In this document: positions 1 to 54,429 of the stretch, in pieces
Position numbering within the stretch: position 1 is the first letter of the stretch
Layout: every line of letters begins with the position of its first letter
Source: Chrysomallon squamiferum
Taxonomy: Eukaryota; Animalia; Mollusca
NCBI GenBank assembly: GCA_012295275.1
Contig: CM022666.1
Coordinates: 15,128,001-15,192,000, forward strand
Direction: 5' to 3'
Length of the DNA stretch: 64,000 nt
Notes under the pieces: model-generated
Told to the model about the DNA's origin: nothing
Seen by the model: only the letters and a program-made list of their open reading frames with translations
The model's database searches: none
Translations under genes and position numbers: made by a program

Positions 1-1288
1 TAAAATAGAGAAATACTATTTATATGATCATACTTAATTTATCATATTAAAACATTTTATAAAAGAAATTATGCTGCTGAATATAATTTTTTTTTTTTTT
101 TTTTTTTTTAATTGTAATAATAAAAGATATTGTTTTTAAATAGTATTTAAAAATGTAGCTAAATGTTTAAACACTGTTTAACAGATAATTAAAAATATGT
201 TTTAATATGTGTATTATGATGTAGAGCGTTACAGTATTGAAAAAAGTAGTCAAATACATACATTTTTTTAAAACACTGGCTTTTATGCTTTAAAGTTGTA
301 TAATTGATAACAGAATAAGGAAATGTTGTGCTCTGTCTATTAGCAAAATACATAGTATTGAATTTTTTGTTTTTAAACTGCGATTTAAAAAAATGTTTAA
401 TTATTATTTATATAAAAGATAATAAAATATAGGAATATTGTACTATTACAATATCATGCCTAGTTACAGAGTTGAAAAAAACACTAAATGTAGCTGAACA
501 TTTAACACTAGAAGAATATATATATATTTTTAAACAATGAAATACAGGAATATTGTTGTGTGTGATAAATTCATCTTCAGTGCAGGAATAAAATAAAGGT
601 CCCAGCATGCATAGAGGCTCAGATCAGGCTGATAAATGGAGGAATAAAAAGTAATTTAGACCATAATGGTGATTTGACTGATAGCACAATCTGAGTCATA
701 GAGTGAAATAGAAAATATTAATATTAAACATTTTAATTTTTTTTTTAGACAAATATTTGTCGTGTTATACTGTTAGTGACAATAAAGTTATATTTTTGGG
801 GTGTTTTTTCTTTCCTAGAAATGAATTTACTAAAGTGTTACAGTTAGCGATTTTATCATAGATTAAATTTTATCATACTTTCTTAGCCAACACAGCAAAT
901 ATGTGGAATTTTTTTGAATTTAAGTAGACCGATCATTTGAGAAGTGAATCTACATCTAAATATGAATTCCATTTATTTTTCATATATAGCTTGCATATAT
1001 AGTCTGCAGGATTTTTAAAATAATATTTTTTATAATTTTGTGCATAACCTATTGTTTGTATATGCACTAAAGTCTGAAAAGATTTTATTATTATTATTTC
1101 TGCTGCATGGAAAAAGTTTCATAATTCTGAATTCCAGATAAGGCATCCTCAAACTGTGTGTATGCATGTGTGTGTGTATAATCATCTTCTTTTATCTGTG
1201 AGAAAAAGAAACAAACAGAATGTGTGCTTCATAATCATATTTATTTAACAGTGTTTGTTTCTTCAATCTTTTCTAATAATTTACTATG

Positions 1289-1389
<101 letters not shown>

Positions 1390-2708
1390 GCTCTATCTTC
1401 CTGTCTAACATGTACATTGATGTTTGAAGTACAGTCAGTAGTAGGCTGTTGAAATTTAAGCTTGTACAGATGTGTACACATCCTGTAGTGTATTACATCA
1501 CAATACTAAATCACCTGGACAATTTGTATGTTTCCATTGTAACAAATTAATTCATGCAGGTAATGAGGTTTTGGGTGTGTTTGTGATTCATTCAGCCACC
1601 TTGAAATAACAATAACAATAACCTGTACACAAACACACACACACAAACACTGAAAAAATAAATCACACCTATTGTCTTTTTTTCTAACAGGTAAATAAAA
1701 AATGACAGGTAGAAAACTGCAGGTGATAAATGTTGTTATTGATTTAATTGTCTTGTTGATTACCTGGCAGTCTTCTTGTTACAAGTGGTAATGAAATTGA
1801 CTGATAGGTGATGACAGCATTTAGTTAGTGCAAAGACTAAACTCAGTCAATCCTACTCCAAACATTCTTTTATATAATATATATATTACCTTGACTTATA
1901 AAACAATTGTAATTTCAAAATAATAATTATTAGAGCCATTCATAATGATTAATTAAAAATATAATATCTGTTTGTAGTTACTAATTATAAATCTCTGGGC
2001 ATGTCTGATTCTGAGTGTCTGTCTGTCTGTCTGTGTGTCTGTCTGTCTGTGTGTCTGTCTGTACTGTGTCTTCAGACCAAACTCTAATAACAGATACTTT
2101 ACTTATTTCAAATGCAGTGTCTTACAATAGTCTAATTAATTTTAATGATTATTTAACTTCAATTTATTCTTTTCAGCAAATTAGACTCTTGTTATAGTCT
2201 GACTAAATAATAACAGCTTACTCTTTCTTGCTATTTATAATTTTATTTTTTATTTTTTATTTTATTTAGATTGGGCTTCTTTTTCTCTGTGCCATAACAG
2301 TATAAACAGTATCAGTTAATTTTCATTTTACAACTCTTTTCTTCTCTTTAGTAGTTTAGGCTGAACTTTCTCAGTTATAGTTTGACTAAGAAATAGCAGT
2401 CATTGTAGTCACTGAAAACTCTTTACTTTTCTTTACACTGGACTGTCTCTCTCTCTTTCAGCCCGAACATGTTTGACAACTTGTAGCTGTCTGATTCATG
2501 CTGTGTCCATTTAAATAGGTTTACTGTGGCCTCTGCTTTGTGTGTGTTACATACTTCTGTCTGTCTGTCTGTCTGTCAGTTCTCTCATCGGAGGCCTGCT
2601 TTGTGTGGCTGTGTACATTTCCTCTCAAGCAATTATCTGCTTTCTTTGTTCATCTTAGTCACACACACACGTACAGGAGGTTTACCACGTCTATACTGCT
2701 CAAAAAAA

Positions 2709-2742
<34 letters not shown>

Positions 2743-3238
2743 GGACATTGCAGTATTGTCAAGTGAAGTAATATATTGCTTTGTGAAATATATGGAAATG
2801 TATTGTATAGTTATTGGAAAAAGTAGGACATTGTAGTGTGGTGGTTTTGTTTTTTTTGGGTTTGTTTTTTGTTATATATATTGAAATAGATTTTATTCTG
2901 CTCAGAAACATCTAAATGGTTTAGTTAAGAAGGGCTGGATTTAGAAAGTGTTATACTTGTATATGAAATAGCACATTGCTATGTGATGTTGTTTTTGGTA
3001 AGATGTTTCAGCTGAATAGAAATCTTAATTTTTTTAAAATTTCTTTTAAATGTTCATTTAGTCTCAAAAATGAAAACAGTCAGATGAGGTGTGTTACATA
3101 ATAGAAGAGTTTGTTGGATTTGAACTGAATGAATTTTGTGTTCAACACATTTTTTAAAATTTTAAATGTATGAGACTGTCTGGGTACAAGCCCTTTTCTG
3201 AATCACTCCATGCCATAACTTAAGTAATAGTCAGCCTG

Positions 3239-3730
3239 ACACTTACACCTGTACTTACACCTGTACTTACACCTGTACATACATCTGTACATACACCTGT
3301 ACATACACCTGTACATACACCTGTACATACAACTGTACATACACCTGTACATACACCTGTACATACACCTGTACATACACCTGTACATACCCCTACATGT
3401 GGGTAATTTAAAGTGTTCATACAATGTTCATAATCAATACAAATACATTGATTTCATGTACATGTACATACTTTTATGTACATACACCTGTACTTACACC
3501 TGTACATACATTGTACATTACCCAGTACATACACCTGTACTTACACCTGTACTTACATCTGTACATACACTTGTACATACACCCGTACATACACCTGTAC
3601 ATACACCTGTACTTACACCTGTACATACATCTGTACATACACCAGTACATACACTTGTACATAGGCCTACATGTGGGTAGTTTAAAGTGTTCAGGTAATG
3701 TTCTAATCAATAAAAAGACATTGATTTCAT
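3239..3730. repeat. 14-bp minisatellite (TACACCTGTACATA-type) in two blocks, each followed by a copy of a ~65-bp spacer
   Basis: Arrays at ~3239-3390 and ~3478-3662; spacer CCTACATGTGGGTA.TTTAAAGTGTTCA...ACATTGATTTCAT at ~3392 and ~3667. Confidence 0.95.
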
Positions 3731-4069
3731 TGTAAGCTTTTATGTTAGCAATACACCTGGAAATGTAATTGTACATTCCCTTGTAATATTATTTTTAAAT
3801 AGTGCTGTTCTTGTACACTGGGCCATATACAAATGTAAGTCTACACTACTACAGAAAGAATGAATGATAATAACAAATAGTTAGAAATTAGTAGTACATT
3901 GTTTTGATAATATTTTGCCTGGTGAAAACCAGTAGATATGTATGATATTGTTATGACTGTATGAAATATTTCATATAATAAATATAATTTTATATTTATT
4001 TATTTGAATTTTATTTGAAATGCCTTTTTATTTCCTTATTTTAATTTAATTTAATTTTATTTTATTTTA

Positions 4070-4121
<52 letters not shown>

Positions 4122-4902
4122 GAAGAAGAAAAAATTCAAAAATTTATTTCTGATAAAGAAATATGCACTGTGATGCAAGAGTTGACTAATTCATTCAGAT
4201 TTAGTCATCATTAATTGATTAATTTCTTTTGAGATAATCAAAAAAAAAAAAAAAGATTTCATGACAAGTTATTCAAACTATTCTACCACACTAAAACTTT
4301 TTTGATTCATTCATTCTGCTTAACTATTTTTGTTCAGTATAACTAAAATATACATTCATTGATTATTCCATTAAAATAGCACTAAAAGTGACAAACTATT
4401 TTTGTTCAGTATAACCAAAACGTTACACTTTAGTCATTTCCATTGTGACAGCATTAACTGTTTTTGTCCAGTATAACAAAAAAACCCCAGCACTATGCTT
4501 TAACAAATCTGAACTTTGACCTCTAGAAATAACACACAGTTATTGGTAATGACAATTAACTAATTTATACAGTCTGGTTTCTGTTGTCCTGTCTGTCTGT
4601 CTGTCTGTTGTGAAAAATAATCTTTACACTGTCCACACATTTTGAACATGAGTCCACTGTGAATACAGTGAGTCTAGCTGCTGTCGTTGCAGCTGAGAAC
4701 AGAACAAGTAGTTCTTGATTTGTGTTGTGTTTTTCACACTAAGAAGGATGATTGTTTGTTTAGTAGAGTGTGTCAACACACTGAGTGAGTGAGATCAGAA
4801 TTTAAATTGTTACTGTCCCTGAACACACTGTGATCTTAGGATTGGTTAATAGTCTGATTTAGAAATATTTTATTTTTTTCTAATTTATATATTTATTGTA
4901 AT

Positions 4903-18762: not shown

Positions 18763-21324
18763 CTTTTTAAAACAATTATTTTATTTATTTATTTTCTTTT
18801 AATTATTCTTTCAAACTGATTTCTGTTTTCCTGTTTTTGCTTCCATGTGTGTAAATATGTGAATATTACAATATTTTTAGGTACAAAATGCATAACAATG
18901 GTGCCAAAGCTTTACATAAAATAAAGTTATCATTCTGCCATCAAGAACAGTCTGAAAACAGAGAAGATTTTATTGTTTTTGTTGCCCATTAATAACGATT
19001 CCTTTGAATGTGAAAATAATCATTGAACTTTGTTTCATTTTCTTAAATAAATGCATACGACACATAACATTTTGTTTCTTTTCTGTTTTTATTGGTATTT
19101 ACTTTAGATGATTTTACAGCTAGTGATTATCTACTGTGAAAGGGTTGTATAATGTGTGCAGCTCACTCCATTTTGTTTTTTTTAATGAATTTTTTTGATG
19201 GTTATTAAAATTCATGTTTCAGTGACATTCTTTTCATGAACAATTAATGAAATAGCATGTATTATGAGTATGTGTGTGTGTGTGTGTGTGTGTCTGTGTG
19301 TGTGTTTCATTGTTTAATCAGGCCAACATCTTTAACATCTTTATGAGTCATCTCCTGTCTTTGTCAACATGGTACTTACTGTAGAATCGAAATTTTTATT
19401 AACCAACAGATGTTAAAATTCTAATTAAATATAGGTCATCAGTATATTAATAACACCAACAGGAGTAATGTTTTTATTAATTATAAATAATGATGATGAT
19501 AATGATAAAATAGTAACAATAAATTAAAATTAAAAATTAACAATATCATTAGAATTATTAATAAATAAATAAATAAATAAATAAGTAATTAATTAAATAA
19601 AACGTAACATAAACAAAACACGACCTTAGTAAAAAGAACAGTTATTTTGTATCTTAAAGTTGAGTAATTTATTAATAAATTATAAATATTCCATGTATCT
19701 GTAAATCATTTGCATATTTTCATACGTACACTGAATCAGAAATGAACCATATATACGAAAACACGTTTTTATTATATTCTACATTCACGTAAAAAACAAG
19801 AATAAAAGAAAAAAAAGAAAGTAAGAAAAACAACGAAAGAACACACAAATAGGGCCTACTCTCAATCACACACAGACATATTTACACAAAAATACACACA
19901 CACAGACACACATACATAAACATACATGGACACACACAGACACAAATATTCCCAGGCAGCCATGACCTCTCTTTCATTGACCTATTCACGTGACCTGTGA
20001 CACTACTATCTGCAGTTTCAAGAACGCGTTCGGCTGCCGTGTTAAACTGACGATTTCCACTGATTATTTTCACGAAGTCAGATTATGTTGTGTACTAACA
20101 GTCAAATATGTCTTCCCATTTCAATGAAACTGATACGTTTTGCGTTTTATGTTTTCACCATTTTCAAAGTTTAAGGCATTTCTTTCTTGTGTTTTTTCTT
20201 TTTTTAATCTTTTTTCTTTATTTTTATTTTGTTTTTCTTATAATTTTTTTAATATTAAACACGCACACACACATGCACACGCACAGAAGCAAGCACAATA
20301 TATGTTTATAAATTATTTATTTATTTATTTATTTTATCATCATCATCATCATCATCATTATCATCATCATCATCATCATCATCATCATTATTATTGTTAT
20401 TATTATCATTTATTTATTTATTTGTTTATTTACTTATTTGTTTATTTACTTATTTTATTTTATTTTTTGATATCATGTTTGTACATTGCATTTTGATGTT
20501 GTAATGTGCCAGACTTTTATTTATCATAATCTTTGATTTCATTAAAACTAATATAATCTTAATTCTACTTTTTATCATTGAAATGTTTTCTCTAACTTGA
20601 AAACTTCAGAGCATTTTTAAAATTCTTAAATCTTAAAAAAAAAAACAAAAAAAAAAAATCATATTTTTGGTTACTATACCATCTTGGTTAAAGTTCTCTG
20701 TGAAAATAGCATATGTATGTATTTATATCAGGATTTTCTTTTGGAGCTTTTTAAAGCACAAAGCACAACACACACACACACACATATAAGTGTTGATGTT
20801 TCTTGTTTTCATTTTTAACATATATTTGTATATTTATTTTGTATATTTTTTATTTATCTTTTGTAAAGTATTTATTTTGTATATTTATTATTTTTTAAGT
20901 ATATTTATTTATTTTTCATATTTTTATTTTAAAATAAATATAAAATAGATATATTAAAAAATCAAAACAATAAAAAAAAATATGATTTACACACAAAAAA
21001 AAAAAAAGATACATATATCACTATATGTGTATGTGTATATCTATATATATATAGGTGTGTGTGTGTGTTGTGTTTAAAAACTATGTCAAACAAAACTGAA
21101 TTAGTTGATTAAATAATGACCTTGACCTATAAAGGATTTAACAACCAGTTTCCATTTACAGTATGCACTGTAATGTGAAGATAATTATAGATGTTCTACA
21201 TAATGACAGGAATACAATATTCATAAGTACCAATAAAAAGAATAACATGTTTCTGTCCCCAAGCTACTTACTGTGTTGTGAATGTTTTTAAATAAACTTT
21301 ATTAAAATAAGTTAGTTAAGAGAT

Positions 21325-32732: not shown

Positions 32733-35429
32733 CTGAAATATATAAAATTGAATTTTGTTTTATGATACTTCAACTTTTTAAATTAAAGCATCCCTAAATT
32801 AATGAAAATGACATTAAGTTAACTACAGTCATGTTCCTTTGAAATCATAATCTCTTAAACAAATGTATTTGTGTGACTATTGATTGTATAATTCTTAAAA
32901 AATGTTCTCCATTTTTAAAATCCATCCACAAGCATTTTATTTTTTTATAATACAGTAATCCTACAGTATTTGAGAAAAAAAATAAAATCATTGTAATTGT
33001 TTATCTATTCTAAAACCAACTTGTGTTTTCATACCAATTCTTAATTATAATGCAAGTTACTTTGTCTTCAAAATGTTTTCAACAGTCCATATTTTGTACT
33101 TGTCTGGTAGGGTTAATCAAATATATAAGGAGTGTAATTAATTTTTTTCTTGATATTATGATAACATTAATGTTAAGCTTTAAATTTAGCAATTAGAAAT
33201 AAAATACTTCAAATTTAGCAATTAGAAGTAAAATACTATCACATTAAAAATAAATGACCTCTACAACTTTGTTAATAATAATAATACAAAAATTAAATTA
33301 AGGACAGTTTTTTAAAAGTATGTAAACCCATGTTAACACTGAAACTTACTAAAAAATGTAACTATTATTATTTCACATTTTTTTTTTTTTTTTAACTTAT
33401 ACCAATGGAGAGCTCTGCTATAATATTACCTGCATCAGGGTATGAAACTCGTTTGAAATGCATGACAGCAGAAAAACAAATTTGGGCCTCTAAATATTCA
33501 TTTTGAAAAAAGATTAAAACAATATGCTTTGAAGAGTCACTTATACAAATATGTGTGATATTTAAATTCTTCTTTGTCAAAGGCTTGGACATGTACTCAA
33601 GTGTTGCATTTAGCCAAGATGATCCAAATGGTCACGATCAGTTTTACGATAATGGGTCAGCAAAACTTATGGTTTTGTTTATCAAGATTACAATTAACTA
33701 CATGCATATCCGGTCCACAAAATTAGTGTTTACACATAGATGTTGGCAAATTAAGGTACGCCAATGTCCATTTTAATGAACTACTAGCAAACCTTTTATA
33801 TGAAATAAATATTTACAATAAAATTATTATATTATAACTTATAGCAAAGAAAAAAGATAGTCTAAATAATATTTCTTCGGTAACTCATCTATAATTTGTT
33901 TTAACATCCCAGTGCCCAAACTGAAGTTTGGTTGCATTTTGGTGACTGTCCATTTCGAGCCCTGCTTGTATTTGTGAATTGGCTTTGAAGTCTGGTTAGA
34001 AAACCATTAAAATCATACAGATACAGGTTCTGTATCTTGTTCCAGACAAACAATATGACTGGTGTAATTAAATCATCTACCCTTTACTGTCAGATTTCTT
34101 ATTTATAGGATTAAATCGTTAATACTTCTAATACATTTGACGTGTCATCTTTAGGCTGGTTACGACATAATCATGATAATGCTATAATCCCCTTGCGGCT
34201 TCTAATAGTAATAGTTATTTAGCATATTAAATAAATAATCTGCAAATCTGAGTAACATAATTAAATATGACGTACATTACTATAATCTTTAACAAGTGCA
34301 ATATTCTATATTGATTTTATATTCTTCGTGTGTGTCTCTACACTGATGTTAGGTATGTGGATAAATTTTTCAAACCCCACTAATCTGAAAATAAATAAGA
34401 CAGTTGGGTAGAGCTTGTAAACCACTTTAAAATGATAGCAAGATCAAGTGAGTATGTAAAAAATTAAGGAAGTAGCAGCAATTTTAAACCCCCGGAAAAG
34501 CAATTTTTTTCGTCCGATTAAACGCTATGTAAGTCATTAGAGGTCTGTGACCAAAAATAGTAATATTTTAACATTTTCCCCTCTATCTTTGTTAATAATC
34601 AAGCTTTCTTGATGAAATTTTCAGAGAAGACCAATGCCAATCTCTGCTATCGATTATATTTGAAAAAATTAAAAAGAAGTTATTAATTAAGATACCAGCA
34701 GCCTAACAAACGTAAGTGGAAAAAGTGCCGATTTTGTCCATTTCCAGCCCCACCCAAATCCCTTCTGTAAATTTTATCATGAAAAACAATTACACTCAAA
34801 TACAGATTAATATGCGCTCTTTTAAATGGTGATGTTGTTTTTGTTATGTGTTAAATCAGTAGTTTGTATGAGAGTGTTAAACGTGGTGGGGGTAAGCGAA
34901 CTTTGTGAACATCCCTAAAGCTAAAGCGGTGTCGCTCTACGAAGCGCTCATCTGAAGGCGGTGTCGCCTTTGCTCAACACCGACTATTTTTAGCAAGGCT
35001 ATTTTTAGCCCAGGAAGGTCAAAGTTCGATATTTCTAACATCGTACATGTCGTCGCTATTAATACCAATGGCGTGTAAATTTATAACAAAAGTTATGTCC
35101 ACAAATGTATATTGCTTGCCTAAAAATAAATTTAAAAAAAAAAAAAAAGATTAAGAAAGAAAGAAAAAAAAGAGTAACAAACATATAAAAGAACCTCTGC
35201 TATTTAAAATGATAGAAGCTATGTTTATATTTTTAGTAACTTTTGGGATGCATAGTTTTCTCCAGTGTTCGGATTTCTAAAGTATATACATTATAATATG
35301 AATACGATCAGAAATAAACTAACTTCGTGTTTTGCTTTAAAAATTCTTGCGATAAATGGCGAATTAAAAATCATAAACATAACAAACTGTACTACAAAAC
35401 AGTACAATGAATGTATTCTGTGAATCTAA

Positions 35430-36830
35430 GTACCAGAGGTATTCATAGAATATTAAATACGAAACGTACAACTTTTTCTTTTTAATCGTAAAACCATAAA
35501 CTGATAAATCATAAAGTGTTCAGTTTTAAAACTTAGGCTATTTTTGCTTCAAATTTTGATTTGCTCCATCAGAGAAAACATTAACAATGGTCACATGATA
35601 CATTGATAGGTATCTTTTGTTTGCTGTCAAATCACAGGAAGTACAAACACAAAGCCATGAAAATTCTATTGTCTGCTTCAAATGACACTTATCATACCTG
35701 TCTTTAGTGTCATGATTACATACACAATGTATTGCTCCTAATTAAGACCGGCAATACCTTTCTGGAGTAGACTCCAATTTATTATACGAGTTTATGTATT
35801 GCAGAGGATTATAGATAAACATTAATTTGTTTATTTCAGAACGTATTCATATTATAATTATATTCAGTAAAAGTCATAACATATAATAAAACATGCATTA
35901 TACAAGTTATTAAAAATATAATCAACACAGATTATAGAAATATAATCATTTAAAATAGCACCAGTTATTTGTAGTTGAACATAAAGTCTTCGGTGACTTG
36001 ACTAGGTAGGAAACAATGCACGGCGATCTCGCTACGCACGTGCTACAATGAATAAGCTAAACATAGGAACATTGAAGAAAAACATACAATGATACAGCCA
36101 ACAGGTTATTAAAATATAAACAACATGAATTTATGTACCAGAGGTAGTGATAGAATATTATCACTATTTTTTTAATCATAAAACTATAAATTGATCAAAC
36201 TTAGGCTATTTTTGTATCAAGTGCTGATTTGCTCCATCAGAGAAAACAATAGCGATGGTCACATGATACATTGATAGGTATCTTTTGTTTGCTGTCAAAG
36301 CACAGGAAGTACGAACACAAAACCAAGAAAATTCTTTTGTCTGCTTCAAATGACAGTTACAATACCTGTGTCTTTAATTGTCATGATTACATACACATTG
36401 TATTGCTCATAATAAAGACCGGCAACACCTTTCTGGAGTCGACTCCAAGGATTATACGAGTTTATGTATTGCAGAGGATTATAGTTAACATCAAATGCTA
36501 GTAATCGGCAAAACAATATTAATTCGTTTATTTCAGAACGAATACATATTATATTTAGTAAAAGTCACAACATCCAATAAAACATGCATCCTACAAGCTA
36601 TTAAAAATATAATCAACATAGATTATAGAAATATAATCATTTCAAACAGCACCAGTTATTTGTAGTTGCACATGACTAGGTGGGAAACAATTTACGGCGA
36701 TTGTAAATAAAATCAACGCGATTTCGGTCTGTAGAAAACGTAAATTAACGGCGATTTCGCTAAGCACGTGCTATAATGTACACGCTGAAAATAAGAACAT
36801 TCAAGAAAAATATACAGCAAACAAGTTATT
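35430..36830. repeat. Diverged direct duplication (~670-700 bp x2) inside the transposon
   Basis: CTTAGGCTATTTTTG...GATTTGCTCCATCAGAGAAAACA...GGTCACATGATACATTGATAGGTATCTTTTGTTTGCTGTCAAA at ~35531 and ~36200; similarity extends over several hundred bp. Confidence 0.9.
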
Positions 36831-37144
36831 AAAAACAGAAATATAATCATATTAAAAGCGACACACCTTTCTAGTTGTACATACGGCAATTTCGGTAGGG
36901 TAGAAAACGTACTATAATGTACTCGCTGAAAATAAGAACATTCGAGAAGGAAAAACATTCAACCAATATAAAAAACATAGAAATATAATCATTTTCAACA
37001 GCGCCAGATCTTTCTAGCACATTTTAAAATTAAAACGCAAGCACACATGTATACACAATATTTTATTAAAAATGATATTTGAAATATTCGACAAATTGAC
37101 CTTTCTAACTGTACATAAAATCTACTAGAATTCAAAATTAAAAA

Positions 37145-40017
37145 TTAAATAGTTAGATCATCCTCAATGAGATCTGCAGCTAGAGCATGGATGTTCATAC
37201 AGTGGTCTACTGCATCTGCATACGATTCATTTACTCCCCAGTAGGCTACAACATATTTCTTACCTTTGGATGTGATCTTCTCTATCTTTCCATTGTATAT
37301 TGCTCTTTCTCCATCATCAATCCACGTATGGCGAATCATGCTACCCACTGAATTCCCTGATAAAAGTTCACTTACCTTTTCCAATTTATACTCTGAGAGA
37401 TCCGAGAATTCAACAGAGAGTCTGTCGATGTCTACACTTTTCAATCTTCTCTCCAGTCTGTTCCTCTCTGTGGTCTCCTTTGCCTGCAGCTTCTGTACTT
37501 GTCTCCTGTGTTGTTCTTTCCTCAGATTCTTCTGCTTGGTACGCCTGTCCTGTCTGTGTTGTTGGCCCATGTGGATCGCCGTTTTAATAATACGATCTCT
37601 TGTCTCCGCGTCTAGGGCATCAAGATAATCCACTGTCCTGTTTTTGATGGCCCTCATTTTACATGAGATGTAGCAGAGAGTAGCATTTGGGGATTTCTTC
37701 TGTAAGGAACTAAACATCCCCATAATCTCTTCTGCATCAATGTTGTGACATCTGGCCGACCGTGTCTCATTCCTCAGTCTCTCAGTGAGATCGCAGTGGA
37801 AGTATCTGTTGTACTGCCGTTCAAGGACAACAACCGTTGCATACAAACAACTCTTCATCATGTTCGCAAACAGGGAGATGTCTTTTGGCGCTCCTTGGAG
37901 CATCTCCAGAGTTGGTTCTTGCAATAGTATATGTCCAAAAAATCTATCTTGCATGACAGAGTGTCTTCAGGGGACTGTGCACTGACTTTCAGTTTGGCAA
38001 TAACTTGCTTGACAAGCTCAATGCCCTGAATGTGGTTTACTTGTTTTGGGGCAACTGCTGATTGGTAGAACTTGGTCATCCAAGGTCCACTGAGCAGTTT
38101 CCCAATAAGTCCAAGCACCTGCATTTCCACTTGTGCAGGAACAGACACAAAGTCTGCTAGGATGCTATGCCGTAAACCACCACAAGATACACCCTTCTGC
38201 AGAAAACTCTTGAATAAATTATGGAAGCGAGTGAAAACGCCACATATATGAAAAAGGATATGTAGGCGGTTACCTCTGTATCTGGGTAAGATCCCACGTG
38301 CCAAGTTTTCGTGGTCCAGAAAAATGATGAAACCACGAGGATCACCCTTGCTATCCATAAACCTCATTTTGTTCATCTGCACGACTATGTTTCCAGCCAA
38401 ACAGTCTGTCCCTTTAAGTTTCTTTTCTATTCTGATTTCTGCTTCACATACCTTTAGAGCAGCACGAGTTTTTGTTGCAATTGAGTCCAATGGATGCAAA
38501 TGGCAATTTAATTCATTGAGTGTTTTGCTCCACGTTTCATTCAGAAGCTGAATTGCAGCATGATTTGCAGGGCATCGATCAGTAAGGGTATTACAAATAT
38601 TAGAAATTATTTTTGTTCTTGCAGTTTGATAATCATCCTCATGAAAGTTTGAGTATGTTCTGGCCAAGTTATTAATAGAGTCAGATATGTGCTCATGGTA
38701 ATCATCAGCAGTCCCACCAGCCAGTTCATCAACTGCAGCAACATAACAGTTCTCTGGTGTGGTAATGTGGACACTGTTCACATGTGTGCCCTCCTGTGTT
38801 GTGGCATCAAAACCAAGTGTGCAGCTTTTATTTTCAATTACGGCTTCAGCTGCCTGTAATTCCGTTATTACTCCAAGTTCCCTTGTCATTGCCTCAGTAG
38901 TGGTTCTGTGTGGGATGTCCTTCAGTGGAACACCACACCGCCAAAAAAACTTCTGAAGAAGAACAGGGATATTGCTGGTTGGCACCTGATTAACAATGGC
39001 ATCGAATACCATCATTCTTAGGTCTGCAGAATAGACCTTTCCATTATATTTTGTCAATTTTAGTTTACTAACTGACTCATGAAGCTTTTCTTCAAGCAGG
39101 ATTTTATCTCTCTGGAGATCAATTATCTCCTTTTGTTTTATTTCAAGTTTTATTTTAAGTTCAGAAATTTCGTTTTTGGCAGACAGCAGCAGAGTTTCTG
39201 ATTCAGTTTTATTCTTTTTTTCGTTGTGGTACTTTTTCATTTGTTCGTGGGTTTTTTTAAAGTTTGACAGAGTAGATTTTGCCTCATGCATGATCACCTT
39301 TGAAACGGTACTTTGTTCTTGAAATTTTGCTATCTGTTCCTCTTTCCGTCTGATTGTCTGGTTTAAGAATTTTACGTATCCCTTTTTCTTTTGCTGTGCT
39401 CTCGCATCTCGGATTGCAATTTGTGTAGACCTTTGAAGCTGTAGCTGTTTTAGTCTCATATTTGTTAAGGAGTTATTTAATAACTTGCATGAAAGGCATT
39501 TTTTTGTTTGTCTGGTTTTCATGGGTGGTTTTGTCAATATTGGAATAGCAGGTTCCTCTGTATCTTCTCCACAGAGTGAACTGCTATCCAATAGATTGTG
39601 TGGTTCTGGGGAAGCAGTAACGTATTGTGGGTTGCATCTTGGTCCAGGTTGGGGCTCATCTTGTTTTCCGGGTACATCCTCAAGATTACAGCTTTCCGTC
39701 AGTAAAAAATTTTCTGAACATAAACACATAAATTTGGTAAATTGTTCAGCATGACGAAACTTGTCGAACTGGTACACAACTTTCTTCACTTCAGCAGAAA
39801 GTCTCAACACAGGGTTAGGAGTTAGTGAAAAATGACTACATAATTCACTAACTGTTGTTGCTCGACTGTTACCACAGCTAGTGTAAATATAAAGCACGTG
39901 TCCTTTCAAAAACTCATCTGTTGCAGGAACTGTGGAATACTTTTCTTGCAGATGCTGTCTACCTAAGCTCGGTTGGTTACATCTAATTAGGCACTGTCTC
40001 TTGTTACTGAAAGGCAT
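37145..40017 (-). CDS. DDE transposase (hAT-like, ~957 aa) with one frameshift at ~37940
   Basis: ORFs 37858-40155 and 37145-37954 join if the A6 run at 37937-37942 is A7 (..SCKIDFFGHILLQ..). Motifs: coiled coil, GFDATT (D1), LTDRC (D2), NCHLH (C(2)H), YRGNRLHILF, HNIDAEEIMG (E). First ATG at 40017 follows a TTTTTCAG acceptor at 40032. Confidence 0.85.
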
Positions 40018-40559
40018 CTTTTGGTTATTCACTGAAAAAAACAAGAAAAGAGCTGAGAAGACAACTGAAATAAGTTTTAAAAAGTTGAAATTATGAAAGA
40101 CAATATTACCAAAATGAAACATCAACTGTGGGTCAAACCAAACACTGAAAAACAAAAAAAAAAAACACCATTATATGAAAAGAAATGCAAAAGTTGAATG
40201 ACCAATACAAATTAAATCCACACAGAATACAATAGCAAGTGCTTATTTGATTTGGTGTTTAGAAATTATAATTGTTTGGTCAATTTTATGATTTTAAAAT
40301 CCTAAAACATCTTGAGATTTGAGACAATTATGGATGAAAATACCAATATATTGTTAGGAACATATTTGTCCATCAATCTTATGTAAGATAATTTAAGAAG
40401 AATAAGTATTAAGTCAGCATAATCCATTCTCAAACGTAAGTCCTTATACAGGAAGTTTGGTCTGCCATGACACTTTCACTTCGGCGATCTAACGTCGAAA
40501 TAACCATGCTTGACGAGATAAAGATTAGAGTTACTAGTTAGCACGCTTGCAGCTGCTTG

Positions 40560-41830
40560 ACAAAATTTCAAAGACAATTAGATAAAAAAAACTACTTTTC
40601 ATTCGTCTCATGTAACCGGATTTAGTGACTGTAGCATGTTGAACATTCGTAATTTTGAAGAAAAAAACAGAAACTCAAACTGGCGATATAACGCCAACAA
40701 ACCATATTTCACGAGGTAAAAATTACAATTAAGAGCCTCGAAGCTGCTTCATAAAATTTCAAAGATAATAAAACTAATTATTATGTCCAGCTTCTTTTCA
40801 TTCGTGTCACATAACCGGTTTTAGTTATTGTAGCATGTTGAAAATTCCGTAAAAGTTTCAAGATGGCGATCGAAAACCGAAATTACACAGACCATATTTC
40901 ACGAGGCGATCATAACAATTGAATGCAACCATAACTTTTGATAAAATTTTAAAGACAGTAAGATAAAAAAACTAATTATTATGTCCAGCTACTTTTCGTT
41001 CGTGTCCAGTAACCGGTTATTGTAGCATGTTGAAAATTCCGTAAAAGTTTCAAGATGGCGACCGAACACCAAAATGATAACAGACCATTTTTGACGAGGC
41101 GATCATAACAGTTGAATGCGTCCAAGCATTTTGATAAAATTTTAAAGACAATAATATAAAAAACTAATTATTATGTCCAGCTACTTTTCATTCGTGTCAC
41201 ATAACCGGTTTTAGTTATTGTAGCATGTTGAAAATTCCGTAAAAGTTTCAAGATGGCGATCGAAAACCGAAATTACACAGACCATATTTCACGAGGCGAT
41301 CATAACAATTGAATGCAACCATAACTTTTGATAAAATTTTAAAGACAGTAAGATAAAAAACTAATTATTATGTCCAGCTACTTTTCGTTCGTGTCCATGA
41401 ACCGGTTATTGTAGCATGTTGAAAATTCCGTAAAAGTTTCAAGATGGCGACCGAACACCAAAATGACCAACAGACCATTTTTGACGAGGCGATCATAACA
41501 GTTGAATGCGTCCAAGCATTTTGATAAAATTTTAAAGACAATAAGATAAAAAACTAATTATTATGTCCAGCTACTTTTCATTCGTGTCACGTAACCGGTT
41601 TTAGTTATTGTAGCATGTTGAAAATTCTGTAAAAGTGTCACGATGGCGATCGAACACCGAAATGACCAAAATACCATATTTCACGAGGCAATCATAACAA
41701 TTGAATGCAACCATAACTTTTGATAAAATTTTAAAGACAATAAGATAAAAAACCAAAGTTAATGTCTACTTACCTTTCGTTCGTGTCCAGTAGCTGGTTT
41801 TAGTGGTTCAAGCGTGTTGAAAATTCGTAA
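40560..41830. repeat. Subterminal tandem array inside the transposon, ~195-bp monomer with A/B dimeric higher-order structure
   Basis: CTAATTATTATGTCCAGC recurs at 40774, 40972, 41164, 41361 and 41554 (periods 198/192/197/193). Units alternate between two sequence variants; there is a diverged copy at ~40560-40770. Confidence 0.95.
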
Positions 41831-42188
41831 TTTTCTAAAAGGCAGCGTAGGCACAGAAAAACTCAACGGAATCAAAATATTCGAAATCGTGAGCATTTAT
41901 CAATATCCCGTCTGTGTTTATATGCAGAAATCCCAAGGAAAGAATATAACACGATCCAATGAAAAGCGAACAAACGGTGCCCCCCCTCATGCAAAACACG
42001 ATTTCTGTGGAACAGCTAATTGGTAAGAAACCGCAGCCGCTAATCGCGAGTATCTGCACATACCTACTGATGTCAATGACTACTGAATCATGTGAATGCC
42101 GTCATAAAATTAACATAAATAATGATTTTCAACAACAGATGGCCCATGTCCACAAAATGCGAATAAAAAGATGAATTTTCTGCCTTAC

Positions 42189-42281
42189 CCAAAATATGAA
42201 ATTGAAGACCATCAACAGCGTTTTCATGCATGTTACAACTGGTCCTGTATGCAGTGTCGACTGATACTGTCCTTTAGTCAT
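42189..42281 (-). CDS. TSPAN7: Tetraspanin (TSPAN6/7-like), coding exon 1
   Basis: Minus strand reads MTKGQYQSTLHTGPVVTCMKTLLMVFNFIFW, then donor TGG|GTAAGG. It resembles the TSPAN7 N-terminus (PVITCLKTLL..FVFW). 93 nt, phase 0, in frame with exon 2. Not in the ORF track. Confidence 0.9.
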
Positions 42282-42400
42282 TTTAAAATCTTTTTAATGC
42301 AGACAACTGCGCTTCGACCACAACAAGATTACAGCCAACAGGAAGTCAGGTGATTGCGCTTTTAGTCATGCGCATCTGGTGTGGAGAAGCAGACGAGGTA
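42282..42400. promoter_or_regulatory. Probable bidirectional promoter for tetraspanin (-) and TMLHE (+), with candidate non-coding first exon of TMLHE
   Basis: CpG-containing patch immediately upstream of the tetraspanin ATG, with ETS-like CAGGAAGT (42339-42346), NRF1-like ATGCGCAT (42368-42375) and two TGCGCT. Plus-strand donor-like GAG|GTATAA at 42397/42398. The TMLHE ATG exon starts with an acceptor, so an upstream exon is expected. Confidence 0.55.
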
Positions 42401-43683
42401 TAATGTTGTGATAATAAATTAATTATTACTTTAAGTAACATCTGTATATTTCATTATTCCAGTGTATTTTTGTTTTGTGCACAAAAATAAAATAAGAGTG
42501 AACTAAAATATAAAGAGAGGAAAGAGTGTCAGTTTATTTTTCCTAGGGAAGAATGTTGCTATATAAAAAAGAGTTAACAACCATTCTATGAATAGAATGA
42601 ACTGTGATACTTAATAGAATAATAATATTAGATGATCGTAATATTAGTTCTGGTAATTTTATATGGATGGCAAAGTATTTAATGTTGAGTGTATAATTCA
42701 GAAATTAATGTTGTGCGTATAAATGTACGTCTCTTTGCTTTGTTGGTTTTTTTTGGTACTTTTTATTTTTTTTTTTTTTTTTGTGTATGTGTGTGTCGTT
42801 TTTTATCTGCACGGTCACGCATCTCGAATTGAATGTTTTGTCGAGCTGACTCAGTCAGATTTCAAATTTTAATGAGTGTAATCAACATTTTCTTTATTAA
42901 TTCCCACATATGCACATGTGCATATGTGAAAATTATTTTAAATTAATATTAATAATACAATTTAAAAAATTAACTATGAAAATAATAATTGTTTTAAAAC
43001 ATTTTTTTTTTTTTTTTTTTTTTAATGCATACATTAATATACATTTATCCATACATTAATATATAAAAGTAAAATAATAATAAATAAATAAATATCAAAA
43101 AATAAAAATTATTAATCTTTTCATACAACCCTACTGTTACTACCATTGGTTAAATGATTACTATACAAAAAACCACAGAAACATTTAGTGGTAGCTCAAT
43201 AGGCTAACTGGGATCATTGTCCTTTCAGCTAATATTCCATGAATAGATTAACAATTTATTAGAAAGTCCAGTCCATGATAAATCATAATTATTTATTTAG
43301 TGAGTGGCAACAACAGAATAAATGACTTCTGGTACTGTACTCGAGGGATGTCAAATTTTGAAAGAATCCAGCTGTACTTACATGAGGAATCAAATCTGTG
43401 TCTAAAAGCAAATGAGCCATTATTTTTATTAATGATTAATATATGCTACATATATTTAGCTGTTTGTTTTCATGTGACATTAATTCCTTTGCTATGATAA
43501 GCATATATGCCATTTTACTTCAGTGGCATAGTATTGGCCTGATATATTAGATAAAATTGCAGTTTATTTTTTAAGTGAAGATATTAAACTTTATTATATA
43601 CATAGTTTTAACTAAATATTGATTTAATGCATGCAGGAGTAAAGAAAAACAGTTCAAGGTTTGGAGCATGGCTGTATATCATC

Positions 43684-53256: not shown

Positions 53257-53481
53257 CATTCAGACTTTCCACTGCCTGTGGCATGACGGGCAGGGAGGTG
53301 AGACTCAGCTAGTCGATGGTTTCCAGGTGGCAGAGAAACTGCGACAACAAGACCCCGACGCCTTCGTCAACCTCACCAAGCAGATAGTTCCACACGAGTA
53401 CATCGAGCAGGGCTTCCATGTCCACTCCCTCGGCACCGTCCTCTCTGTGCACCCAGCCTCCAAAGAAATGGAAAACATTAG
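53257..53481 (+). CDS. TMLHE: TMLHE coding exon 4
   Basis: TAAG|(G)IQTFHCLWHDGQGGETQLVDGFQVAEKLR...HEYIE...ENIR|GTATGT; 225 nt, phase 2 to 2. Confidence 0.94.
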
Positions 53482-54120
53482 GTATGTGCTGCAGTGTAAT
53501 ACTAATGTTAAATACTAGGTATGTGCTGCAGTGTAATACTAATACTAATGTTAAATACTAGGTATGTGCTGCAGTGTAATACTAATACTAATGTTAAATA
53601 CTAGGTATGTGCTGCAGTGTAATACTAATACTAATGTTAAATACTAGGTATGTGCTGCAGTGTAATACTAATACTAATGTTAAATACTAGGTATGTGCTG
53701 CAGTGTAATGCTAATACTAATGTTAAATACTAGGTATGTGCTGCAGTGTAATACTAATACTAATGTTAAATACTAGGTATGTGCTGCAGTGTAATGCTAA
53801 TACTAATGTTAAATACTAGGTATGTGCTGCAGTGTAATACTAATACTAATGTTAAATACTAGGTATGTGCTGCAGTGTAATACTAATACTACTGTTAAAT
53901 ACTAGGTATGTGCTGCAGTGTAATACTAATACTAATGTTAAATACTAGGTATGTGCTGCAGTGTAATACTAATACTACTGTTAAATACTAGGTATGTGCT
54001 GCAGTGTAATACTAATACTAATGTTAAATACTAGGTATGTTTAAGGTAATACTAATACTAATGTTAAATACTAGGTATGTGCTGCAGTGTAAAAATATTT
54101 AATGTTAAATACTAGGTATG
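53479..54120 (+). repeat. 43-bp minisatellite beginning at the TMLHE exon 4 splice donor, ~14 copies
   Basis: Unit TAGGTATGTGCTGCAGTGTAATACTAATACTAATGTTAAATAC at 53479 (37-bp first unit), 53516, 53559 and onward. Confidence 0.97.
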
Positions 54121-54429
54121 TATATATAAGTGTAATGCTAATACTAATGTTAAATGTGAAATATTCACTATAATATAATACTAATACTAATTTTAAATAA
54201 TTAGGTAAAATATTCACTATAGTGTAATACTAATGTTAATAATTAGGTACTTTCTATAGTGTAAAATAATACTAATGTTAAATACTAGGTATGTATATGC
54301 TTTCTGCAGTGAAATATTAATGTTAAATATTAGGTATGTGCTAATAAGTGTACTTTCTATAATGTAAAATATTCACTATATATGCTGCAGTGTAATACTA
54401 ATACTAATGTTAAATATTAACGGTAATTT

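Follow-up and report, generated by a model that had tools for sequence, protein, structure and literature searches.

The transposase of a hAT-like DNA transposon in the window (the whole stretch of 64,000 nucleotides analysed here) ends in a domain of about 70 residues whose predicted structure leaves little doubt of a Tudor-like fold, and which is very probably related to the Spin/Ssty repeats of the Spindlins. To judge from the sequences of its relatives, this C-terminal domain is a constant feature of the transposase family. It lends itself to a tentative reading, slightly short of an even chance, in which an H3K4me3-type reader on a helical arm would hold the transposase on promoter chromatin at target capture.

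Position and spread of the C-terminal domain

The Spin/Ssty-like Tudor domain occupies 37,148-37,357 on the minus strand, as residues 22-91 of P0001, the 91-residue tail of the transposase, in which S24-I91 correspond to 37,351-37,148. The initial annotation had taken this peptide to be the end of a transposase, and it is the C-terminus of a minus-strand ORF ending at 37,148; the range given there, 37,148-37,355, covers 208 nt and is off frame. The annotation had also placed the tail after the catalytic Glu and a long charged helix, and so it lies: the Glu is at 37,732-37,730 and the helix spans residues 789-846 in the model of an intact homologue (P0002).

Conservation of the last 70 or so residues reaches from cnidarians to fish. 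Among the first 74 relatives the domain is whole in 39 and partial in 5, while 30 stop before it; for 60 further relatives the corresponding numbers are 35, 3 and 22. P0074 and P0251 are exceptions in which other sequence continues past the position of the domain, and they look like fused gene models. The named sponge record stops just short of the domain. A profile of the domain searched against 1.84 billion representatives gave 481 matches, of which the best 150 were considered. The domain lies no more than 5 residues from the C-terminus in 149 of 166 complete cases, and transposase-like sequence precedes it in 64 of the 72 representatives with at least 40 upstream residues. The domain, at a mean identity of 42%, is less conserved than the RNase H core (57%) but more so than the long helix (36%) and the linker (23%). 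A predicted homodimer of the domain scored 0.01.

Likeness to Spindlin

A profile built from 38 domain sequences and searched against PDB sequences is led by Spindlin-4 (E 0.0022), Spindlin-3 and Spindlin-1, the top four matches lying at E 0.0022-0.07. Spindlins account for 16 of the 21 matches and for all of the top 11 ranks, which is better than chance and upholds the original suggestion that the tail resembles a Spin/Ssty Tudor; a second profile, from 57 sequences, had the same outcome. Single-sequence searches with the tail found no Spindlin, and gave Pfam Agenet (E 0.06) and, in the PDB, CarD (E 0.3).

The domain was modelled with a pLDDT of 95.7 as four strands and a closing helix. In a second look with VIA, Spindlins were the top 22 entries, the best match, with a middling Z of 7.8 and an rmsd of 2.3 A over 66 residues, being to repeat 2 (125-192). 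Atlas, which uses language-model features, placed Spin/Ssty clusters at ranks 2 and 3 (0.86) behind a PTM/DIR17 Tudor at rank 1, with scores (0.86-0.87) that, being below 0.9, count as leads only. The initial annotation had proposed checks against Pfam and with Foldseek. Pfam Spin-Ssty (PF02513) was matched by none of the 38 members, even with E allowed up to 1, and other Tudor families were matched weakly; Foldseek returned nothing for the domain model at E <= 0.001.

The barrel with its C-terminal helix is shared with repeat 2 of Spindlin-1 to -4 (PF02513; PDB 7e9m, 4mzh, 4uy4), as are the H-x-aromatic, aromatic-x-G and Tyr motifs, and the residues mapped to the Spindlin cage and to D184 and D189 are kept. 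There are also clear differences. Each transposase carries one C-terminal repeat, whereas the Spindlins are host proteins with three in tandem, and the domain is longer by about 9 residues, has a conserved Trp61 and falls beneath the Pfam threshold. It also occurs in invertebrates, whereas Spindlins are described, in the available text of PMC3967050, as conserved in vertebrates.

Cage-mapped aromatic residues and acidic residues

In Spindlin1 the K4me3 pocket consists of F141, W151, Y170 and Y177, with E142, D189 and D184 as anchors for H3 A1 and R2 (as described in PMC3967050). Since pocket and anchors all belong to repeat 2, a single repeat can hold them. HMMER aligned W33, Y42 and Y60 of the transposase domain both to W62/W72/Y91 and to F141/W151/Y170, the Spindlin numbering being derived from printed alignment offsets. 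From the strand register, position 73 would map to Y177. D83 and D88 would map to D184 and D189, as judged from the end points of the structural alignment and not from a residue-level superposition.

Conservation was counted over the 163 of 188 domain matches (out of 218 proteins) that span the profile. An aromatic residue stands at position 33 in 155 of the 163, at 42 in 158, at 60 in 160 and at 73 in 140, and all four cage-mapped positions are aromatic in 128. Position 83 is Asp in 160/163 and position 88 is Asp or Glu in 152/163, and the median net charge of these domain sequences is -3 (n=163). The position equivalent to E142 (I34) shows no conservation. A structural role is possible for the invariant D83 and H31, and a further conserved feature is a basic loop, rich in Lys, at residues 48-55. 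The domain probably binds a methylated Lys or Arg peptide.

The window copy itself has W33, Y42, Y60 and H73 at the cage-mapped positions (the fourth again by strand register), and His at 73 occurs in only 4 of 163 sequences overall. Because Y177A costs Spindlin1 80-fold or more in binding (D184A costs about 90-fold, as reported in PMC3967050), this particular copy may read methyl marks poorly.

The same barrel could be something other than a reader. Retroviral integrase has an SH3-type domain, and the tail might likewise be an SH3/Tudor-like module for DNA binding or assembly, comparable to the SH3-type domain of TnsB, with aromatics that are purely structural. In a wide structure search the RDM15 Tudor (Z 6.7), the TraI translocation domain (6.5) and Spindlin-4 (6.3) were tied, with CarD (5.1) and TnsB (4.3) not far behind; a Z under 8 may, as the tool warns, reflect no more than a common arrangement. 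Both the basic loop and the lack of a match to Pfam Spin-Ssty suit such a module. Against this, the sequence profile singles out Spindlins, four aromatics coincide with positions of the cage and the domain carries a net negative charge, and I consider a non-reading barrel distinctly unlikely.

The transposase and its classification

The transposase gene (about 956 codons) runs from 40,014 to 37,145 on the minus strand (37,145-40,014), with its stop at 37,145-37,147. Also on the minus strand are the first catalytic Asp (GFDATT, 38,806-38,808), the second (TDRC, 38,578-38,580), the C(2)H motif (CHLH, 38,494-38,505) and the catalytic Glu (HNIDAE, 37,730-37,732), and the corresponding D390, D466, C491, H494 and E748 are invariant in an alignment of 45 sequences (A1). 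In a run of A near 37,936 the reading frame shifts by one base. A programmed frameshift or an intron at this point was considered and rejected, because the contigs of all four sequencing runs (4/4) have one more A there; the shift may come from faulty assembly or from a private mutation. With this frameshift and His73, the window element may be a weakened or dead member of its family. RNA contigs of run X5 (depth 4-6) were examined as a sign of transposase transcription and were set aside, since they extend over non-coding parts of the element too and so do not demonstrate transcription.

Searches with the transposase returned 74 relatives and then 180 (120 among the matches listed). Among the matches listed, the named relatives come from a sponge, Hydra, molluscs, a brachiopod, an annelid, a priapulid, a sea spider, echinoderms and teleosts, and are mostly uncharacterised proteins. 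The full-length model of P0002 (pLDDT 84) has Hermes as its best fold match (E 9e-7) and the P element transposase as its second best (E 2.4e-5); the Hermes-like core is thus read from this homologue's model and not from the window's own full-length protein.

A C(2)H motif that follows the second Asp is a feature of the hAT superfamily, and it is present both in the window copy and throughout the 45 sequences. The initial annotation had called the protein a hAT transposase, and this motif, the Hermes-like fold, the DDE RNase H core with its helical insertion and the short, 10-bp TIRs all agree with that call. The target site and the accessory domains do not: the TSD is 7 bp, whereas 8 bp is canonical for hAT elements (according to PMC8721813), and the window ORFs matched neither a BED finger nor the hAT dimerisation domain (PF05699), nor did the 45 homologues among the 25 of 40 Pfam families listed. 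THAP was absent from the same results. Repbase does contain hAT families with 7-bp TSDs, as noted in PMC4455052. The element is best described as hAT-like, an assignment that the modelled fold supports without an 8-bp TSD or hAT Pfam domains, and it probably belongs to the 7-bp-TSD subgroup of hAT. The name of that subgroup is, I assume, hATw. In the available parts of PMC12905397 and PMC13465017, hATw appears as a mere label.

Hermes and the hAT superfamily (PDB 6dwz, 2bw3, 4d1q, 8sjd) are among the closest known systems, although identity to Hermes is only 10-12% and, in addition to the differences in TSD and Pfam domains, the present protein is about 950 aa long, with a long coiled N-terminal region and the C-terminal Tudor barrel. 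The P superfamily (P, Galileo, 1360) is likened to it by the second-best fold match and by the 7-bp TSD, which Galileo and 1360 also produce. That superfamily, however, features THAP and D(2)H (as summarised in PMC3698922), in contrast to the C(2)H and the lack of a THAP match here.

The element and its insertion site

The element is 7,717 bp long (34,350-42,066, minus strand) and is bounded by perfect TIRs of 10 bp, its ends reading TAGGTATGTG at 34,350 and 42,066. The TIR downstream of the transposase lies at 34,350-34,359 (plus strand), and the upstream one at 42,057-42,066 (minus strand). Outside them stand the left and right copies of the 7-bp TSD, CTGATGT (34,343-34,349 and 42,067-42,073, no strand). 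The empty allele, which has a single copy, confirms the TSD length: contigs from 3 of 3 public DNA runs (two studies) join the flanks over one TSD copy, at a depth equal to that of the flanks. These empty-site contigs, found among the matches listed, carry no information on filled junctions. Given an empty site in 3/3 runs, the insertion is polymorphic, and it is probably recent. ORF-internal contigs stand at roughly 5-14x flank depth, a rough sign, as contig depth is no copy number (the tool's own warning), that the element is a multi-copy family.

Intron 1 of a tetraspanin gene, 1,732 bp long minus the element, contains the insertion 122 bp from its start, 215 bp away from the tetraspanin ATG (42,281). 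Both distances had been put forward in the initial annotation, and the coordinates bear them out; a Pfam Tetraspanin match confirms the identity of the gene. The first coding exon of this host gene is at 42,189-42,281 (minus strand), and in an RNA contig it is joined by splicing, at 42,187, to exon 2; the gene is expressed. Upstream lies a putative promoter region, modestly CpG-rich (42,282-42,420, no strand), whose promoter activity I infer; it has words at 42,340 and 42,369 which I take to be ETS-like and NRF1-like motifs.

The proposal of a CpG-bearing bidirectional promoter at this point fared less evenly. The head-to-head neighbour of the tetraspanin is a gamma-butyrobetaine-hydroxylase-type dioxygenase gene, and the CpG signal is present but modest, with an o/e around the empty site of 0.68 against 0.38 for the 64-kb window. 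An equal CpG count was found in 19 of 557 overlapping 600-bp windows, some of them elsewhere in the stretch. The first exon of the dioxygenase was not located, RNA cover being zero across 42,376-42,692; with this exon unplaced, a promoter possibly shared by the two genes is an inferred one. The 1-kb promoter zone makes up 1.8% of the 56-kb element-free window, and the insertion site was picked after the fact. The most CpG-rich stretch outside the element is at 19,500-20,600 (o/e about 1.1).

Which mark, and to what end?

If the domain is a reader, the predicted helix of about 55 residues would carry it away from the Hermes-like core. Its cage of W33, Y42, Y60 and (Y)73 would enclose trimethyl-lysine, and D83 and D88 would hold R2 and the free N-terminus of H3, the part played in Spindlin1 by D184 and D189. 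A multimer of the transposase would bring several such domains together, which could raise avidity. Bound in this way to a methylated H3 tail, most likely H3K4me3, the domain would keep the transposition complex at promoter-type chromatin during target capture. The chances that the bound mark is indeed H3K4me3 are evenly balanced, and Spindlin is reported to read H3K9me3, H4K20me3 and methyl-arginine too.

The domain might instead read a repressive mark (H3K9me2/3 or H4K20me3) and send most insertions to gene-poor heterochromatin, as chromovirus integrases do, with the present promoter site an exception. Spindlin structures with H4K20me3 and K9me2/3 peptides, by their titles, are among the top matches, and the chromodomain of MAGGY targets H3K9me. 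Grau-Bove et al. argue that the targeting of active chromatin should harm transposable elements and that fusions to readers of active marks are costly (bioRxiv 2021.11.30.470311, as available). On the other hand, the presumed acidic counterparts of D184 and D189, residues that in Spindlin1 anchor H3 R2 and A1 beside K4, are conserved, and the sole site seen adjoins an expressed gene. I rate this the least probable of the explanations considered.

That the domain biases insertion toward promoters is a somewhat doubtful proposition, with one insertion site seen. Tol2 is a hAT element that is not known to carry a reader domain. Yet it favours TSSs and H3K4me3 regions (as reported in PMC3413126), and a single promoter-proximal insertion therefore proves little and cannot separate the models; the site here could be explained by the usual preference of hAT elements for open chromatin. 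Such a bias would leave the domain free to read methyl marks on the donor side or against silencing, so that the transposase locates the ends of its element where chromatin is marked, or else competes against readers of the host or against methylated silencing proteins. The profile, structure and conservation of the cage fit this equally well, and mouse SPIN1 is reported to sit on H3K4me3-K9me3 at young transposons and to drive their silencing. However, the SPIN1 work concerns mouse and two repeats, whereas the domain here is a single repeat, and a donor-side or anti-silencing role seems improbable, although more credible than heterochromatin targeting.

The reading of an H3K4me3-type reader at target capture extends to a broader proposal: an animal-wide transposase family would have its own H3K4me3 reader for insertion at active promoters, and its single repeat would share with the triple repeat of vertebrate Spindlin an ancestor passed between host and transposon. 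I hold this to be rather unlikely in its full form. The link to Spindlin also raises a question of priority between the host reader and the transposon copy.

Reader domains on other transposable elements

A histone-reader fold on a transposition enzyme has known parallels in the integrases of chromoviruses such as MAGGY, in the Tudor of Ectocarpus Gypsy-10_Ec32 and in the hAT-chromodomain fusions of Ephydatia, the fold being C-terminal in the integrases. Fusions of transposons to chromodomains and PHD domains, including hAT-chromodomain in one sponge, are described in bioRxiv 2021.11.30.470311, and a Gypsy element is called, in the accessible text of PMC12477816 (2025), the first reported transposable element with a Tudor domain. 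The chromovirus, MAGGY and Ectocarpus elements are retrotransposons, whereas the present enzyme is a DNA transposase. The Ephydatia fusions carry chromodomains and are described as taxonomically restricted, whereas here a Spin/Ssty-type domain is family-wide in many phyla. A Tudor-type domain in the DNA transposases of many phyla now stands beside that Gypsy element. A Spin/Ssty-transposase fusion was not found in the published literature searched, where most subscription journals and Repbase Reports were outside the scope; the 823-fusion table of bioRxiv 2021.11.30.470311 could list related cases.

The choice of chromatin by cut-and-paste transposons is mostly credited to DNA accessibility or to borrowed host proteins. 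If the proposed reader is real, a built-in domain of 70 residues would make that choice testable through one module, and the family could provide a natural tool for chromatin-steered integration.

Other copies and related sequences

Within the element, a subterminal tandem array upstream of the transposase (40,762-41,830, no strand) repeats a unit of 193-199 bp about 5 times, and degenerate duplications lie downstream of the transposase at about 35,300-37,000. Other copies show many rearranged joints in both regions. A high-depth joint of 37,147 to 39,383, present in three DNA runs, leaves out 2.2 kb of the transposase, Tudor domain included, and is likely a non-autonomous deletion derivative. 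RNA-library contigs pass from the element ends at 34,350 and 42,066 into other flanks, which are other insertion sites; they are too few and too short for mapping.

Both element ends were recovered in only one of 54 metagenome loci (L008), with none convincing in the 13-21 longer loci scanned, and 60 pattern matches in viral contigs included 0 relatives. L008 contains a 4.2-kb relative (128-4,335) that ends in the identical 10-bp TIR, has no matching TSD and retains flanks of about 100 bp, and perhaps represents several copies collapsed in assembly. Three gene models (P0047, P0074 and P0251) join the transposase to other sequence (BTB, ARV1 and an unnamed helical tail); these are probably annotation chimeras and possibly captures.

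Finally, a tandem array of about 21 copies of a 43-bp unit (53,479-54,416) begins at one of the splice donors in the dioxygenase gene, and every unit has the TIR 10-mer. BLAST gave no match between this array and the element, and the shared 10-mer is probably a coincidence with the splice donor consensus. The array multiplies donor-like sites.
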